Shown one piece after another: positions 34,221-44,111 of a stretch of 64,000 nt of DNA. The position numbers and the translations under genes are program-made. The DNA is from Albugo candida (lineage: Eukaryota): contig JBDOQK010000019.1 in assembly GCA_040437565.1 (NCBI GenBank), positions 310,001 to 374,000 on the forward strand, in the 5' to 3' direction. The notes below the pieces were generated by a model, which had not been told where the DNA came from, did not search any database, and was given only the letters and a program-made list of their open reading frames with translations. Numbering within the stretch: position 1 is the first letter of the stretch; every line of letters starts with the position of its first letter.

Positions 34221-34518
34221 CTATGCTTCTGCCTTTACCTTGAAAGCCTTGGCCGTTTCAGAAATTGATTTGATGTCAACTGTTTTACAATCAATAAATA
34301 AGGTCTACAATCGATTAGTGAGCTTCCTGCTTACCTCGTGCTCCACGCTCTCCATCGGTCCATTTGAATCCCGCATATTCGATATGATTACGCGGCGCGA
34401 GTTTGCTTTTCAGAGGTTCTTTCAACGTTTCTCGCAAAATGCAAGCCGATTTATTGGTATACTGCATGTAGGACATGCCGGCAACACGCCAAAGAGAAGT
34501 TCCTTTTGCTGGGCTCAT
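34221..34518 (-). CDS. ATP15: Mitochondrial ATP synthase F1 epsilon subunit (2 exons)
   Basis: MSPAKGTSLWRVAGMSYMQYTNKSACILRETLKEP matches WR.AG.SY..Y....A...R..LKE. Intron gtaagc...aaacag, then VDIKSISETAKAFKVKAEA*. Confidence 0.88.
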
Positions 34519-34632
34519 TGTCAATGAAGTTGGATTTTATTGATTTCAAAGGAGAGCACGCCGTCAATTCATTATTGATTATACACAATTCAACTGACAA
34601 TTCATTTGAATTGTCACCGGAATCATTGGTTC

Positions 34633-36945
34633 ATGCAGTCGTCCTATTCTTCCGCATGGGTTTTCGCGGTCCCTATTGCTGCTCTTCTGCTCACAGCGGT
34701 GTCACTTCAGCTAACCGACACTTGGCATCCCAGTATTGAATTATTATGCAGCAAATTCGCTCAAAAAAGCCGACAAAAACCGACTAAAGCCAACAAAAAG
34801 AAGCTAAAAAAATCTACCATCTCTCGCAAGTCGCCACAAAAGCCGCATTCCGATGCTCCCAGAGCGATTCCCGTTCGCATTCTCTTTGGCACTCAAACAG
34901 GAACAGCTAAATGTATGTAAATCAATCGGAATTCCTTTTGTTTTGATACTATTGCGTGCATTTAGCGATGGCATTGGACCTAGAAAAGCGTTTGTTTGCA
35001 TGTAATGTGTCAGGATTCCATTTCCAACCCGAAGTCATAAACATGAACGAATATGACCAAGTAAGCAAGTAATTTCATGCTATTTCATGCTCATTTTTAA
35101 CAATAATTCGCTCCACAGGATCATTTAGAGCACGAATCAGTCGTGATTTTTATCCTATCAACGTGGACGGGAGGAATCGCACCCAAAGATGCAGAGACTT
35201 TTTGCTCGTGGCTGAAAGATATGGCGCTGGATTTTCGAGTGTCAAAGACATGGCTGTCGCATATCTTTCACGCAGTGTTTGGTCTAGGAAGCGCCGAGTA
35301 TGATGAGCATTACTGCACAGCAGCCAAGGAATTGAGCAAGCATTTAAAGCTGTTGGGGTCTTCCAGTTTGGTTGAGATCGGCTTTGGCGATGATAATATT
35401 GATCAAAATCAGCAATTTGAGCAGTGGAGTGACCAACTTATCGTGAAACTCTGCTCACAAAGCACAATGTCTCCTCCAGCAACCGAAGTACAAACGGTCA
35501 ATGAGGAAGAGAACGACGACGAAACAAAAGGATGGCTATCACAGAATCAACATCGTCGTCAGAAAAGAGCTGAAAAACAGCAAGATGCGCTCAGGTTGAA
35601 TCCTAAAGCGATGGAGTGGACGGAAGAAGATCTGATGAATGATCGACTTTTGACCGATGACACCCTTGAAATCAACCGAGATATCAGCACTACTAAACAA
35701 TCTTCTGAAGGAGAAAGTATCGTCGATGTGGAAGATATAGGAAACACGATGCGAGAATCACAAACCGCGAATGAGTCCCAAGAAATGGTGACGCCAATGC
35801 AACGAAAAGCTCTGACCAAAGAAGGGTATAAGATCATTGGGAGTCACAGTGCGGTCAAACTCTGTCGATGGACCAAACATCAACTACGAGGTCGTGGAGG
35901 GTGTTACAAACACACATTTTATGGTATCACGAGCTATCAATGCATGGAAACAACTCCAAGTCTCGCGTGTGCAAACAAATGCGTTTTTTGCTGGCGTCAT
36001 CACAAGAATCCTGTTGGTCGAGTATGGCGATGGAAAATCGATGAGCCAGAAGGTTTGATTGTAGGCTCGATCGAACGTCATCAAAACATGATCAAAGAGC
36101 TGAGAGGACTGCCAGGACTGAATCTAGAACGTTGGAAAGAAGCCTTCACCGTTCGTCATTGTGCGCTCTCGCTAGTCGGGGAGCCGATCATGTACCCGCA
36201 CATCAATACGTTCTGTCGAAAACTTCATCAGCGCCGTATTTCGTCGTTTCTCGTGACAAATGCTCAATTTCCCGAGAAAATCGCGGCTTTGGAACCGATC
36301 ACGCAATTGTATGTGAGCGTCGACGCTGCGACCAAAGATGCTTTGCAAGCTGTTGATCGACCGCTTTTCAAGGATTTCTGGGAAAGATTTCTCGCGTGTT
36401 TGAGAGAGCTGAGACGCAAAGGCCAACGCACAGTGTATCGTCTCACGCTCGTCAAGTCGTACAACATGCAAGATATCGAAAAGTACGCTGAGCTGATCGA
36501 AATTGGGCAGCCGGATTTCATCGAAGTCAAAGCAGTCACATATTGTGGCAAATCAGACGGATCCGATCTGACCATGAAGCACGTTCCGTGGCACGAGGAA
36601 GTCTGTGACTTTTGTACTGCGTTGGTCGAGAAAACAAACGGCGTATACGGTCTCGCTGCCCAACATGCACATTCGAATTGTGTCCTGCTCGCAAAGAAAA
36701 CATTCTGCATCGATGGACAGTGGCATACGTGGATTGATTATGAAAAGTTCCATGATCTGATGGATCGATACTACACGGACGGAACGATGTTCTCCTCGAG
36801 CGAGTACATCTCTCCGACGCCTTCATGGGCGACATTCGATGCACCTGAAAAAGGCTTTGATCCATGCGAGACGCGATTCTATCGAACGAAAAATGGGAAA
36901 ATTGCAGAAACATCGTATCAAAGCACCGAGTCAGGATGCGGCTAG
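34633..36945 (+). CDS. TYW1: S-adenosyl-L-methionine-dependent tRNA 4-demethylwyosine synthase (flavodoxin plus radical SAM)
   Basis: N-terminal hydrophobic segment; flavodoxin ILFGTQTGTAK and VFGLGS; HSAVKLCRWTK, CYKHTFYGI, CANKCVFCWR (CxxxCxxC), SLVGEP, VTNAQFP. Two introns upstream of ORF 35143. Confidence 0.96.
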
Positions 36946-36966
36946 CTCGAGATCTTACGTGAGCGC

Positions 36967-37370
36967 TTATTGACATTGGAGTAGTGAGTGGAAGAAAAAA
37001 CAGCTTTCGAGCACGCCATCTTCGCTGCAGTCTGTACAATGAATGCCATTGTCCAATTTCGAGCTTCCAAAACTTGCACGAAGTGAGTCTGGATACAGTG
37101 CTTGTGCGATTTCCACATCGAAAGGCCCACAGAATTCGCGAAAGCTGCTCACAATATCGCCATCACCACGGATCTCCAATGCTATGCAGATATTCGAGCT
37201 CATGTAGTTGATCATTTCCTAAGCAAAATACTTTCAGTATGCCTTTTCGAACGACGTCGCATTTACTTGATATTTGGGAACAACGAGTTTGTACGCTTGG
37301 AAGAATTCATCCGCTTGGCTGAGTGTCAAGTGAAAAGATCGCATCGCTGAAATCTCAAAAGACCGATTTT
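36967..37370 (-). CDS. NME7: 3' part of NME7, duplicate copy truncated by the gap
   Basis: Identical to 40046-40449. Confidence 0.6.
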
Positions 37371-37470
37371 NNNNNNNNNNNNNNNNNNNNNNNNNNNNNN
37401 NNNNNNNNNNNNNNNNNNNNNNNNNNNNNNNNNNNNNNNNNNNNNNNNNNNNNNNNNNNNNNNNNNNNNN

Positions 37471-37597
37471 GCGGCGCGAGTTTGCTTTTCAGAGGTTCTT
37501 TCAACGTTTCTCGCAAAATGCAAGCCGATTTATTGGTATACTGCATGTAGGACATGCCGGCAACACGCCAAAGAGAAGTTCCTTTTGCTGGGCTCAT
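37471..37597 (-). CDS. ATP15: 5' part of ATP synthase epsilon, duplicate copy truncated by the gap
   Basis: Identical to 34392-34518. Confidence 0.6.
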
Positions 37598-37711
37598 TGT
37601 CAATGAAGTTGGATTTTATTGATTTCAAAGGAGAGCACGCCGTCAATTCATTATTGATTATACACAATTCAACTGACAATTCATTTGAATTGTCACCGGA
37701 ATCATTGGTTC

Positions 37712-40024
37712 ATGCAGTCGTCCTATTCTTCCGCATGGGTTTTCGCGGTCCCTATTGCTGCTCTTCTGCTCACAGCGGTGTCACTTCAGCTAACCGACAC
37801 TTGGCATCCCAGTATTGAATTATTATGCAGCAAATTCGCTCAAAAAAGCCGACAAAAACCGACTAAAGCCAACAAAAAGAAGCTAAAAAAATCTACCATC
37901 TCTCGCAAGTCGCCACAAAAGCCGCATTCCGATGCTCCCAGAGCGATTCCCGTTCGCATTCTCTTTGGCACTCAAACAGGAACAGCTAAATGTATGTAAA
38001 TCAATCGGAATTCCTTTTGTTTTGATACTATTGCGTGCATTTAGCGATGGCATTGGACCTAGAAAAGCGTTTGTTTGCATGTAATGTGTCAGGATTCCAT
38101 TTCCAACCCGAAGTCATAAACATGAACGAATATGACCAAGTAAGCAAGTAATTTCATGCTATTTCATGCTCATTTTTAACAATAATTCGCTCCACAGGAT
38201 CATTTAGAGCACGAATCAGTCGTGATTTTTATCCTATCAACGTGGACGGGAGGAATCGCACCCAAAGATGCAGAGACTTTTTGCTCGTGGCTGAAAGATA
38301 TGGCGCTGGATTTTCGAGTGTCAAAGACATGGCTGTCGCATATCTTTCACGCAGTGTTTGGTCTAGGAAGCGCCGAGTATGATGAGCATTACTGCACAGC
38401 AGCCAAGGAATTGAGCAAGCATTTAAAGCTGTTGGGGTCTTCCAGTTTGGTTGAGATCGGCTTTGGCGATGATAATATTGATCAAAATCAGCAATTTGAG
38501 CAGTGGAGTGACCAACTTATCGTGAAACTCTGCTCACAAAGCACAATGTCTCCTCCAGCAACCGAAGTACAAACGGTCAATGAGGAAGAGAACGACGACG
38601 AAACAAAAGGATGGCTATCACAGAATCAACATCGTCGTCAGAAAAGAGCTGAAAAACAGCAAGATGCGCTCAGGTTGAATCCTAAAGCGATGGAGTGGAC
38701 GGAAGAAGATCTGATGAATGATCGACTTTTGACCGATGACACCCTTGAAATCAACCGAGATATCAGCACTACTAAACAATCTTCTGAAGGAGAAAGTATC
38801 GTCGATGTGGAAGATATAGGAAACACGATGCGAGAATCACAAACCGCGAATGAGTCCCAAGAAATGGTGACGCCAATGCAACGAAAAGCTCTGACCAAAG
38901 AAGGGTATAAGATCATTGGGAGTCACAGTGCGGTCAAACTCTGTCGATGGACCAAACATCAACTACGAGGTCGTGGAGGGTGTTACAAACACACATTTTA
39001 TGGTATCACGAGCTATCAATGCATGGAAACAACTCCAAGTCTCGCGTGTGCAAACAAATGCGTTTTTTGCTGGCGTCATCACAAGAATCCTGTTGGTCGA
39101 GTATGGCGATGGAAAATCGATGAGCCAGAAGGTTTGATTGTAGGCTCGATCGAACGTCATCAAAACATGATCAAAGAGCTGAGAGGACTGCCAGGACTGA
39201 ATCTAGAACGTTGGAAAGAAGCCTTCACCGTTCGTCATTGTGCGCTCTCGCTAGTCGGGGAGCCGATCATGTACCCGCACATCAATACGTTCTGTCGAAA
39301 ACTTCATCAGCGCCGTATTTCGTCGTTTCTCGTGACAAATGCTCAATTTCCCGAGAAAATCGCGGCTTTGGAACCGATCACGCAATTGTATGTGAGCGTC
39401 GACGCTGCGACCAAAGATGCTTTGCAAGCTGTTGATCGACCGCTTTTCAAGGATTTCTGGGAAAGATTTCTCGCGTGTTTGAGAGAGCTGAGACGCAAAG
39501 GCCAACGCACAGTGTATCGTCTCACGCTCGTCAAGTCGTACAACATGCAAGATATCGAAAAGTACGCTGAGCTGATCGAAATTGGGCAGCCGGATTTCAT
39601 CGAAGTCAAAGCAGTCACATATTGTGGCAAATCAGACGGATCCGATCTGACCATGAAGCACGTTCCGTGGCACGAGGAAGTCTGTGACTTTTGTACTGCG
39701 TTGGTCGAGAAAACAAACGGCGTATACGGTCTCGCTGCCCAACATGCACATTCGAATTGTGTCCTGCTCGCAAAGAAAACATTCTGCATCGATGGACAGT
39801 GGCATACGTGGATTGATTATGAAAAGTTCCATGATCTGATGGATCGATACTACACGGACGGAACGATGTTCTCCTCGAGCGAGTACATCTCTCCGACGCC
39901 TTCATGGGCGACATTCGATGCACCTGAAAAAGGCTTTGATCCATGCGAGACGCGATTCTATCGAACGAAAAATGGGAAAATTGCAGAAACATCGTATCAA
40001 AGCACCGAGTCAGGATGCGGCTAG
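37712..40024 (+). CDS. TYW1: TYW1, second identical copy (probable assembly artefact)
   Basis: Translation identical to 34633-36945. Confidence 0.9.
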
Positions 40025-40045
40025 CTCGAGATCTTACGTGAGCGC

Positions 40046-41277
40046 TTATTGACATTGGAGTAGTGAGTGGAAGAAAAAACAGCTTTCGAGCACGCCATCT
40101 TCGCTGCAGTCTGTACAATGAATGCCATTGTCCAATTTCGAGCTTCCAAAACTTGCACGAAGTGAGTCTGGATACAGTGCTTGTGCGATTTCCACATCGA
40201 AAGGCCCACAGAATTCGCGAAAGCTGCTCACAATATCGCCATCACCACGGATCTCCAATGCTATGCAGATATTCGAGCTCATGTAGTTGATCATTTCCTA
40301 AGCAAAATACTTTCAGTATGCCTTTTCGAACGACGTCGCATTTACTTGATATTTGGGAACAACGAGTTTGTACGCTTGGAAGAATTCATCCGCTTGGCTG
40401 AGTGTCAAGTGAAAAGATCGCATCGCTGAAATCTCAAAAGACCGATTTTGTAAAATCCGACGCACGACATCGCCAAGCCGTCCTGAGACAATTTGAGCTG
40501 CGTTTGTGACAAATATGGCGATCACATACCTTCCTGAACGACTCGAGGCCGAAGGATGCAAAGTGTGCAGCAATCAAAAATTGCTGTGGTGCGAGGTCGG
40601 GTCTCTGTGCTGAGTGACTGGAGAAAGCTTCCAGTATCTGAGGCTTCTCGACACAAGAGTATGGAACCATCGTGGTCCCATCCACGTTCTCTCACGCGAT
40701 CGAGGTAGGAGGCCTCCGTGGAATTTTGTTTTGTTTGCAGGAGTACGAGGACGGATACGCTATCTTCAGAATGAGAAACGATCTGATCGATCAGATTTGC
40801 CACACACGATCGATGCACCTTTCATCGCTTGAGCCTGCTGCTGGGTTATGTGCATCATCTCCAGGTGCAGTAAAGTGCCTGCAGCTTGTATGACTTGAAG
40901 GATATCGCCCATCCGATTGTACGCCTTGGGAGGGATGACACAGATCATTTTATCCGATGTGATTCCGTACGCCAATTGCTGGCGAGTAAAGTCATTTGCG
41001 GTGGCAATGATGCGAAATTGACGACTATACACTGTGACGGTAGCACCCACATTGATATCTGAAGTCGATACGGTCGGAATTCGGATTTTTTTGAGAAAAA
41101 TTCGCTTGTTTTGCCGTTCTATCTGTATAGCATGCACAGTGAGCTTCTTCTGCAGAGTTCTAAGAGCCTTACCAATTCTAATGTCTGATCCGGGAAACAA
41201 TTGAGAATGTACTGCTTATCCTGATCGCTCTGTGGATCGTGCCATTCCGCAAAGTAGGATAATTTCTGCTCCGACAT
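40046..41277 (-). CDS. NME7: Nucleoside diphosphate kinase 7-like (DM10 plus two NDK domains), multi-exon
   Basis: DM10 start MSEQKLSYFAEWHDPQ...RIFLKK...VGATVTVYSRQFRII; CVIPPKAYNRMGDIL; C-terminal NDK FREFCGPFDVEIAQALYPDSLRASFG...NGIHCTDCSEDGVLESCFFF. Confidence 0.88.
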
Positions 41278-41298
41278 GCTATAAATACGATTGTCGGG

Positions 41299-42961
41299 TC
41301 AGAAGGCCGCATGCAGCGATAACAATGTGCAGGCAGTGACAGTTGCAGCTGTCGGGCTGTTTTGAGTACTATCGTCTCCGATTACCATTTGCACTGTTGC
41401 TTGAAATCGTGAATTGGGATGGACGATGGCATTCAGACAGGAAGCAACTCGCCATTTTGCATCGAGACAATTGGGGATAGATGACCTCGTGTCGATAAGT
41501 AGACTTGCGTTGATATTTCCGGCTACGTGCTGGATCACAGGGTCTTGGGCGGTGACATTGAAGACCTGAAGCTTATTATCATGGAGTCCCTGGAGTCGCA
41601 TTGTGACGGCCCGGTACCTCCAGAGACATGCTTTATCGTGTTCCTCGGTTGCGCTCGAGTCGATTTCATCAAATGTGAGTATTGAAGTCGTTCTTTTACG
41701 ATTTTTTTTCTGTATTCTGCATTGACGCTTTGGACACGACATGTACAGATTGGGAATGACTTTAGCATTGAATCTCGGCAGCGTTTCTTGACAAAATCGG
41801 CAATAGCTCTCGACCAAAAGTGGTGTGAATGGAGGCCTCACACGGGAAGTGGATCCTAACGGCTGCCCAAAATCGACGCGTTCGACCCGAACATCCTCCA
41901 AGACGATAAGTTCACCATATTTGTTACCACTATCCGGTCGCATTTGTGAAGTTTCTATTGATTTACATATTACTCCTTTTTTCTCACTGATTCCCGTCTG
42001 AATTTTCGACAGAATTGAAGGATGACTCGTCCTGCACCTCACGAATTGGGTCATTGAGCTCGAATGTGCGAGCAGAGATTTTGTAGCGTCATCGAGTGCT
42101 ATGATAAGATTCAGTATCTCAAAAGGTCCATCATGCGCCAGAAGAGACTCAGAATGCTTTTTGTGAGCCTGTTGATCCCATAGACAGAGTCGTACAGCCT
42201 GTGCTTCGCCCAATGTGTCATCAGTCATCTCAACATCTCGCCGGTAAGCTCCAAAAGTGGTCGCCAGTCTATCCACTACGCCGGTCTTTTCTTCTTTCTT
42301 TTCTTTTGGCTCTCGCAAGCGACAACGAACATGAACGATTGTTTCTGGCTGCAAATCGCAAAGCTTGGTGAACGATTTATCCGTAGGATATGATTTTGGA
42401 TCAGATTCTATCGACCTTCTTCCCCTTTGAGCTTGAGGCTTCTCAACTTGCTCTGGATGATCCTTCATCCATTGTATTAAATGGAGTGTTTCCTTCATAC
42501 TAATATCGGCTGATCCACAATGCCGACCATTGCGTACCAGAAGATCGATGCGAGAGCTTGTGTTGGAGTAATGAGCTTCCATCGAACCACAAAAGCTTCG
42601 AAGGCGACAGCTGCTTACGCAAGGTGAGAAGTATACGTTTTTTTAGTAGGATGACGTACTTTGAGAAAAGAACAATGTCGCCGACTTGCACGGCTGTGTT
42701 TCGAAGCTCAAATTGATTGCATAAAGTGTATTTTGGCTGGTCATGACCCCAGAAAAGAACTTTAAAAAATGTATACGTATGATCTGCAACGTATATTATA
42801 TTAACAACTCGGCTTTCTCGGCCATTGCGAAGCTTTCTTTCCCGTCGACACATTTGCTGCACAACTGCAATAAAATCTTTCTGCATACCGTCTTGGAGTG
42901 TACAAAGAAAAGCTCTGTTTGCTGATTCCTCGCATTTTAACATGGATGCGCAATTTGACAT
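41299..42961 (-). CDS. Triple-OB-fold ssDNA-binding protein with Cys4 zinc motif, SHLD2/FAM35A (shieldin subunit 2)-like
   Basis: Two exons (intron 42659-42611, gtacgt...taagcag). OB-A: YVADHTYTFFKVLFWG...VGDIVLFSN. OB-B: LCDLQPETIVHVRCRL...LCLWD. OB-C: YCRFC...YMSC...C...YRAVTM...IQHVAGNINASLL. The SHLD2 resemblance is from recalled human sequence; the start codon is uncertain. Confidence 0.65.
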
Positions 42962-43363: not shown

Positions 43364-43390
43364 GTTTGCCGATAGAATACGACTTAAAGA

Positions 43391-44111
43391 ATGGCACGAC
43401 ATGAAAACCCATTTGATATGCAAATCAAATTGCTTATGATTGGCGATAGCGGTAATTCTTTACTCAATTGCAGAATTTATGATACAATGCTAAATAAATA
43501 CTGCAAGGTGTCGGGAAGACGTGTCTTTTGCTTCGATATGCGAATGATTCATTCTCTCCAACGTTCATCACGACGATTGGCATCGATTTCAAGATAAAAA
43601 ACATTGAATTGGATGGCAAAAAAATTAAGTTACAGGTCTCAAGTGAACTCGTTCTGATAATAAGTTTGTGTAAGCGGATTTCTTACGTTAGATTTGGGAC
43701 ACAGCAGGACAGGAACGATTTCGGACAATCACAACGTCGTATTTCCGTGGAGCCCAAGGAATTTTACTGGTGTATGATGTCACAGATAGGACATCCTTTC
43801 AAAGTATACGAAATTGGGTTGGTCAGATACAACAACATGCCGACGTACATGTGAACAAGATTCTTATTGGGAATAAATGCGATATGACGGATGACAAAGT
43901 AATCAGTACGGAAGAGGGGCAGGCACTTGCCGATGAGTATGGGGTCAGATTTTATGAGACCAGTGCTAAGAACAACATCAATGTGGAAGGAGGTTTCATC
44001 GATATTGCCCGAGAAGTAAAAAATAGACTGATGGAAGAAGGTGGATCGCACAAAAAAGAGAGTATAAATCTCAGCGCGAAGGCAATTCCACCAAAGAAAG
44101 GCTGTTGTTAA
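43391..44111 (+). CDS. RAB8: Rab8/RabE/Sec4-family small GTPase (3 exons)
   Basis: [62 protein letters not shown]-terminal GCC prenylation motif. Confidence 0.95.

Follow-up and report, generated by a model that had tools for sequence, protein, structure and literature searches.

Gene structure and expression

We have analyzed a 64,000-nucleotide stretch of Albugo candida DNA (positions 310,001 to 374,000 of the forward strand of contig JBDOQK010000019.1, assembly GCA_040437565.1), referred to here as the window and numbered from its first letter, which carries on its minus strand a gene for a 537 amino acid (aa) protein with three predicted OB folds and a zinc ribbon in the last of them. This gene, hereafter the OB gene, is expressed and spliced, and we put at about 0.8 the probability that its product is a member of the RPA70 (RPA1-like) superfamily, presumably one that binds single-stranded DNA (ssDNA). 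The coding sequence (CDS) occupies window positions 42961-41299 on the minus strand, from the ATG at 42961-42959 to the TGA at 41301-41299; this is the exact span that had been proposed in an earlier reading made from the letters and open reading frames (ORFs) of the window (the sequence-only reading), which had also suggested a relationship to the shieldin subunit SHLD2.

Exon 1 (42660..42961, minus strand) is 302 nucleotides (nt) long, encodes residues 1-100 and ends after the second base of codon 101; it is defined by the ORF, the first ATG and the joint seen in RNA contigs, and its N-terminal part can be aligned to full-length relatives. The single intron (42611..42659, minus strand) measures 49 nt, reads GTACGT...AAGCAG with GT..AG borders, and is absent from the contigs of runs X1, X4 and X6, such that the joint of 42660 to 42610 is found in three of the four runs, the fourth having no coverage there. 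Exon 2, including the TGA, extends over 41299..42610 (minus strand) in an open frame without a further intron, and the X1 contig is colinear with the genome over 41200-42956 apart from the one intron joint. The spliced CDS of 1614 nt translates into 537 aa plus a stop, with no internal stops, and the product reads ...VQVGDIVLFSN/CRLRSF... across the junction (slash), the same junction that the sequence-only reading had drawn. While none of the runs is on record as RNA, the spliced contigs show that some of them, at least, contain RNA; the contigs give neither stage, strand nor expression level.

Two additional short introns, one at ~41945-41980 and one in the Albugo insert of the zinc ribbon, were considered and rejected: the X1 contig keeps both stretches, and they are also conserved in A. 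laibachii. The alignments and fold predictions for exon 2 were made with window 41302-42612, which adds one surplus N-terminal Ser and leaves the results unaffected. A separate observation concerns the X4 contig, which skips 74 nt at 41675-41748 with GT..AG borders on the plus strand (GTGAGT...ACAG), antisense over the zinc-ribbon region. The skipped length is not a multiple of three, the skip is absent from the X1 contig, and it occurs in a single low-depth contig; it suggests a spliced antisense RNA.

Domain architecture and zinc ribbon

In its architecture the protein matches the DBD-A/B/C core of RPA70, i.e., three OB folds with a four-cysteine (Cys4) ribbon in the last, as predicted in two AlphaFold models. 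One was made for P0006, a full-length relative from Pythium oligandrum, from an 18-sequence alignment (mean pLDDT 76.8), and the other for exon 2 of the window gene from a 44-sequence alignment (mean pLDDT 75.1). The three OB folds of P0006 are predicted at residues 16-115 (OB1), 183-284 (OB2) and 314-508 (OB3); OB1 is followed by a long helix at 127-144, and a CxxC...CxxxC/H ribbon separates strands 1 and 2 of OB3. The exon-2 model predicts OB2 at residues 79-199 and OB3 at 212-437, both with pLDDT of ~90. The three OB-fold-like blocks that the sequence-only reading had recognized are thus predicted as OB folds, and the CxxC...Cx4C motif that it had noted is present. So are all of the window-side segments that it had lined up with human SHLD2, and these occur in the order it gave: VQVGDIVLFS with the N across the splice, LCDLQPETIVHVRCRL, LCLWD..FEILNL..LLAHSSSMT, YCRFC..LYMSC..RYRAVTM and IQHVAGNINASLL.

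OB fold 1, which resembles DBD-A of RPA, is predicted at 42535..42883 on the minus strand (approximately residues 27-126) and spans the intron; it was placed by alignment to OB1 of P0006, and its boundaries are approximate. Sub-threshold matches of relatives to the Pfam model REPA_OB_2 fall on this region. OB1 begins ~25 residues past the first Met, and the long N-terminal arm of SHLD2 is absent, as had been read from the sequence. OB1 is followed by a conserved helix (42445..42498, minus strand; residues 39-56 of the exon-2 model and 127-144 of P0006) with the family motif LYPMIEWYKxHR, which reads LHLIQWMKDH in the window and includes one nearly invariant Trp. OB fold 2 (42016..42378, minus strand; exon-2 residues 79-199) carries the nearly invariant NLWDQxA, in the window LCLWDQQA. 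OB fold 3 (41302..41979, minus strand; exon-2 residues 212-437) is of the RPA70 DBD-C or Teb1 OB-C type and ends in a conserved C-terminal strand, which comes after a low-complexity linker.

The Cys4 zinc ribbon, CRFC...CPKRQC, lies at 41719..41802 on the minus strand between strands 1 and 2 of OB3 and consists of exon-2 residues C271, C274, C293 and C298. Its spacing in the window is C-x2-C-x18-C-x4-C, within a family range of C-x2-C-x17-30-C-x2-4-C. Of the 43 relatives in alignment A3, 37 have a CxxC...C-x2-4-C/H motif at the equivalent position and the remaining six are truncated or divergent; three of the four Cys columns are nearly invariant across the family. Directly after the second Cys pair there is an insert of ~20-25 residues (..KKNRKRTTSILTFDEIDSSATEEHDK..; window 41620-41720, exon-2 residues ~298-330) which is present in both Albugo proteins and in no other family member; the RNA contig includes it, and its modeling is of low confidence.

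Family and range

The protein belongs to an unnamed, oomycete-wide family of RPA1-like three-OB proteins, in all probability a lineage separate from canonical RPA1. Its nearest named relative is a protein of Albugo laibachii Nc14 with 66% identity. Among 1.84 billion representatives, searched exhaustively with phmmer, 17 matched at E<=0.001, 14 of them at <=1e-10, and a profile search returned 40 matches at E<=1 (8000 candidates scored). When the 537-aa product was compared with a hidden Markov model (HMM) built from relatives alone, window rows excluded, it matched HMM positions 14-484 of 518 with an E-value of 3e-92, which places the family match far beyond chance. All named source organisms are oomycetes, from the genera Albugo, Phytophthora, Peronospora, Hyaloperonospora, Bremia, Nothophytophthora, Globisporangium, Pythium and Lagenidium.

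Full-length members measure ~500-575 aa. No longer or fused members of 948-2705 aa were found by the search, itself weak evidence, and fusions occur only as gene models of A. laibachii (735 aa) and Lagenidium giganteum (854 aa), in which the family member is merged with the NDK7-like gene next to it. There were no precomputed Pfam domains in the OB part of the family members among the hits, and the source names are mostly hypothetical or uncharacterized; three automatic exceptions disagree with one another ("CST complex subunit CTC1," "Telomeric single stranded DNA bin..." and "Replication protein A OB domain-con..."). A literature search found no report on SHLD2 or CTC1 relatives in Phytophthora, on MEIOB relatives in oomycetes or on four of the family's locus tags. 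The SHLD2 Pfam models do not list the family, a listing that would have lowered its novelty according to the sequence-only reading.

Sequence-profile and structure comparisons

A total of 44 relatives were scanned singly against all of Pfam (~46 proteins scanned in all). The only model to match the last OB fold repeatedly was SHLD2_C (PF15793), which was found in three relatives: P0006 (residues 369-468 on profile 57-147; E 2.3e-5, 24.3 bits against a curated cut-off of 27), P0033 (residues 428-496 on profile 73-139; E 0.032, 14.1 bits) and P0017 (residues 396-489 on profile 72-163; E 0.055, 13.3 bits). Once corrected for the number of proteins scanned, the E-value for P0006 is ~1e-3. All three matches are in one register, which takes in the second Cys pair, the WRYR strand and the GNI.A..L segment, and covers the places in the window that the sequence-only reading had aligned. 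The SHLD2_OB1 model (PF21669) matched one of the 44, P0009, at residues 28-118 on profile 30-111 (E 0.081, 13.1 bits, cut-off 26).

Models of other ssDNA-binding families fared as follows. Rep_fac-A_C was found in none of the 44 relatives at E<=1 and in neither window piece, Rep-A_N was likewise absent from the Pfam results of both, and CDC24_OB3, CTC1 (PF15489), POT1 (PF02765) and DUF4503 (SPIDR) matched none of the relatives. POT1PC (PF16686) matched two (E 0.18 and 0.21). OB_MEIOB_N, which is carried by 94-99% of members in the MEIOB clusters listed by the Atlas, matched one (E 0.12, 12.1 bits) at residues 153-192 of an N-truncated model and not at its first OB; Pfam holds no model of the last OB of MEIOB, and the comparison with MEIOB is to that extent incomplete. 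Searching the sequences of the PDB with the window ORF gave one chance-level match (2k4k_A, E 0.37), and searching them with the family profile gave two (E 0.61 and 0.69), none of them an RPA or SHLD2 chain.

Foldseek comparison with the PDB put RPA70 at the top for both models, with 9pd4_N at 1.4e-14 and 4gop_C at 9e-13 for P0006 and the same chains at 4.3e-8 and 7.1e-8 for the exon-2 model, followed by CTC1, Oxytricha TEBP-alpha, POT1, RADX and Tetrahymena p75. A comparison per domain of the exon-2 model with 48,161 representative chains was made with VIA-align. Here the best score was that of OB2 with Teb1 OB-B (Z 13.0, root-mean-square deviation 3.0, over 97 positions), while OB3 matched Teb1 OB-C (Z 10.3, 150), RPA70 DBD-C (8rk2_A; Z 10.2, 151) and the C-terminal part of Pot1 (Z 10.2, 133). 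No OB structures of SHLD2 or MEIOB were among the PDB matches listed. In the Atlas, the structure search with P0006 returned a cluster of SHLD2 in its first row, aligned on SHLD2_C with a score of 1434 vs. 874 for the next. An unnamed Streptophyta cluster of proteins of ~400-421 aa with no Pfam family was near P0006 in both the feature and the structure searches of the Atlas, and it may be a plant counterpart of the oomycete family.

Relationship to named families

Judged from the profile matches, the last OB fold appears closest to SHLD2_C among named families, and SHLD2 is our best single guess for the nearest named relative, which falls short of establishing it; a specific kinship of the oomycete family with SHLD2 is a tentative proposal. 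It draws on the recurrent matches of SHLD2_C to OB3, the hint of SHLD2_OB1 at the OB1 of P0009 and the first row of the Atlas structure search, and to this extent the homology put forward by the sequence-only reading has found some backing. Like the OB module of SHLD2 (FAM35A), the oomycete protein has three RPA1-like OB folds, a Cys4 ribbon at the same position in OB-C and a helix after OB-A, a helix which RPA1 is described as lacking (Tomida et al., 2018; PMC6003645). As the template reported there as best for SHLD2 itself is 4GOP, an RPA70 structure, the high rank of RPA70 among solved structures leaves the question of SHLD2 undecided. A number of results weigh against reading the protein as an RPA70-type factor with SHLD2 as its nearest kin. 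The two window pieces have no Pfam match at E<=10, all Pfam matches in the relatives lie under the curated cut-offs, SHLD2_C is without a match in 41 of the 44, and the model for the middle OB of SHLD2 (OB_SHLD2_2nd, PF22779) has none in any of them. The commonest Pfam hint is instead the generic REPA_OB_2, seen on OB1 or OB2 in 11 of 45 rows (best E 5.5e-4). The SHLD2 row of the Atlas structure search has a TM score of 0.33, which is under the bar of the tool, and the closest feature neighbors of P0006, by the language model of the Atlas, are not SHLD2: they are a POT1-bearing cluster (0.95, the top match), MEIOB (0.94) and the unnamed plant cluster (0.94), and further down hold'em, plant CDC24-OB proteins, SPIDR-type DUF4503 proteins and a CTC1 cluster with SHLD2_C in 15% of its members. 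For the 399-aa form of the window protein itself every Atlas score is <0.9. TM scores of whole models to PDB chains are low as well (0.2-0.27), since the relative orientations of the domains are not fixed, and the zinc spacing differs from those quoted in PMC4830875 for both RPA1 (C-x4-C-x13-C-x2-C) and MEIOB (C-x2-C-x10-C-x2-C). The protein could possibly be a true orthologue or co-orthologue of SHLD2, i.e., the DNA-binding module of shieldin in an ancestral stand-alone form to which the REV7/SHLD3-binding arm was added later. Unlike SHLD2, the oomycete family has neither the ~420-residue disordered N-terminal arm nor the motif that binds REV7/SHLD3, and the absence of longer forms from the search bears weakly on the same point. 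Orthology would in addition need a very patchy history, because SHLD2 is reported from vertebrates and not from invertebrates or plants (PMC6003645), and a review cited in PMC11616998 describes orthologues of shieldin as absent from yeast, fly and worm, among others. The full scenario, in which a shieldin-like three-OB end-protection factor predates the split of stramenopiles and animals, vertebrates added the REV7/SHLD3 arm, and most other lineages lost the factor or diverged beyond recognition, is accordingly one that we hold as rather doubtful; the unnamed ~400-aa plant cluster could be a further member of such an ancestral family.

Three other origins have to be weighed with it. The family may have arisen as a fast-evolving, lineage-specific duplicate of RPA1 in oomycetes without special kinship to any animal family, in which case the matches to SHLD2_C would reflect a similarity shared by DBD-C domains in general; we regard this, too, as possible rather than probable. 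The families compared are all members of a single OB superfamily, REPA_OB_2 supplies the most frequent Pfam hint, and RPA70 (4gop_C, 9pd4_N, 8rk2_A) is the best solved match of both models, sharing with them the arrangement of DBD-A/B/C and a zinc ribbon in DBD-C. Generic similarity would predict, however, that Rep_fac-A_C is found at least as often as SHLD2_C, when it was found in none of the relatives; the family profile drew no RPA chain from the PDB sequences, and in contrast to RPA70 the oomycete family has no N-terminal DBD-F, no RPA Pfam model at cut-off and a different spacing of the cysteines. A large subunit of a telomere-end or CST-type complex, resembling CTC1, Teb1, TEBP-alpha or POT1 and capping or processing the telomeric 3' overhang, is an unlikely identity in our estimate. 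Chains of CTC1, TEBP-alpha, POT1, Teb1 and Tetrahymena p75 are strong structural matches, the highest Z-score belongs to Teb1, the top Atlas feature match bears POT1, and single members carry automatic names that point to CTC1 or to telomeric ssDNA binding, names which contradict one another. The Pfam models of CTC1 and POT1 never match, the two POT1PC matches have E-values of only ~0.2, RPA70 ranks above all telomere proteins in Foldseek, and there is no sequence-profile support for Teb1, CTC1, TEBP-alpha or POT1, CTC1 and POT1 being moreover much larger or of other domain counts. Less likely again is a MEIOB-like meiotic paralogue of RPA1 that handles ssDNA in meiotic recombination with a partner resembling SPATA22. 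MEIOB and Drosophila hold'em are of similar size (~450-540 aa) and likewise consist of three OB folds without an N-terminal domain, the last OB carrying a zinc motif that starts with CxxC (PMC4830875), and their clusters account for six of the 30 nearest Atlas feature matches of P0006 (0.93-0.94). The spacing of the remaining cysteines differs from that of MEIOB, the one match to OB_MEIOB_N is not meaningful and falls on the wrong OB, and MEIOB is described in the same source as an invention of opisthokonts. An RPA70-superfamily protein with a possible link to SHLD2 is the reading that we retain.

Proposed function and significance

By analogy with DBD-A and DBD-B of RPA70, OB1 and OB2 would grip ssDNA in tandem through conserved aromatic positions in their grooves (..CWG.. 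in OB1 and NLWDQ in OB2). We take the ..CWG.. of OB1 and the NLWDQ.A of OB2 to sit at the aromatic-contact positions of the RPA70 motif ..LWG..A. OB3 together with the zinc ribbon and the conserved C-terminal strand may provide extra contacts with DNA, and one or several small partner proteins may dock on this OB3. Such docking is described elsewhere, namely of RPA32/14 on RPA70-C, of STN1 on CTC1, of SPATA22 on MEIOB and of SHLD1 on SHLD2. The job of the protein is likely to be to bind, and to protect or process, 3' ssDNA at breaks, recombination intermediates or telomeres.

Oomycetes include major pathogens of crops, and their DNA-repair and telomere machinery has barely been charted. What is newly defined here is a conserved, expressed and unnamed RPA-like protein, a presumed ssDNA binder, across the oomycetes, which public databases label inconsistently (CTC1, POT1/Cdc13, RPA OB) or not at all. 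Should the SHLD2 signal be true, the DNA-binding heart of shieldin would be ancient, though shieldin is treated as restricted to vertebrates in the papers quoted above, and the origin of end protection by 53BP1-shieldin would become testable in a distant eukaryote. Should it be false, the family would be a clean example of the frequent re-use of the RPA70 A-B-C module for specialized ssDNA tasks.

Neighboring loci

On the minus strand the TGA of the OB gene (41301-41299) is followed, after only 21 nt, by the ATG (41277-41275) of an NDK7-like gene, which extends downstream to ~40300 and encodes a nucleoside diphosphate kinase domain together with a PH_NDK7_N/DM10 domain. Both genes are spanned by one RNA contig of run X1 (4980 nt). 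The adjacency of the two is conserved across distant oomycetes, as the gene models are fused in A. laibachii and L. giganteum. Further along, 34392-37370 and 37471-40449 are 100% identical copies of 2,979 bp placed around a gap of ~100 N (37371-37470), and each contains an ORF of 612 aa that is TYW1-like, with flavodoxin, radical SAM and wyosine-formation domains; most probably the duplication is a product of assembly or scaffolding and not a genuine tandem one. On the other side, upstream of the OB gene and divergent from it, a gene for a small GTPase of the Rab/Ras family with several short introns is found at 43388-44111 on the plus strand.

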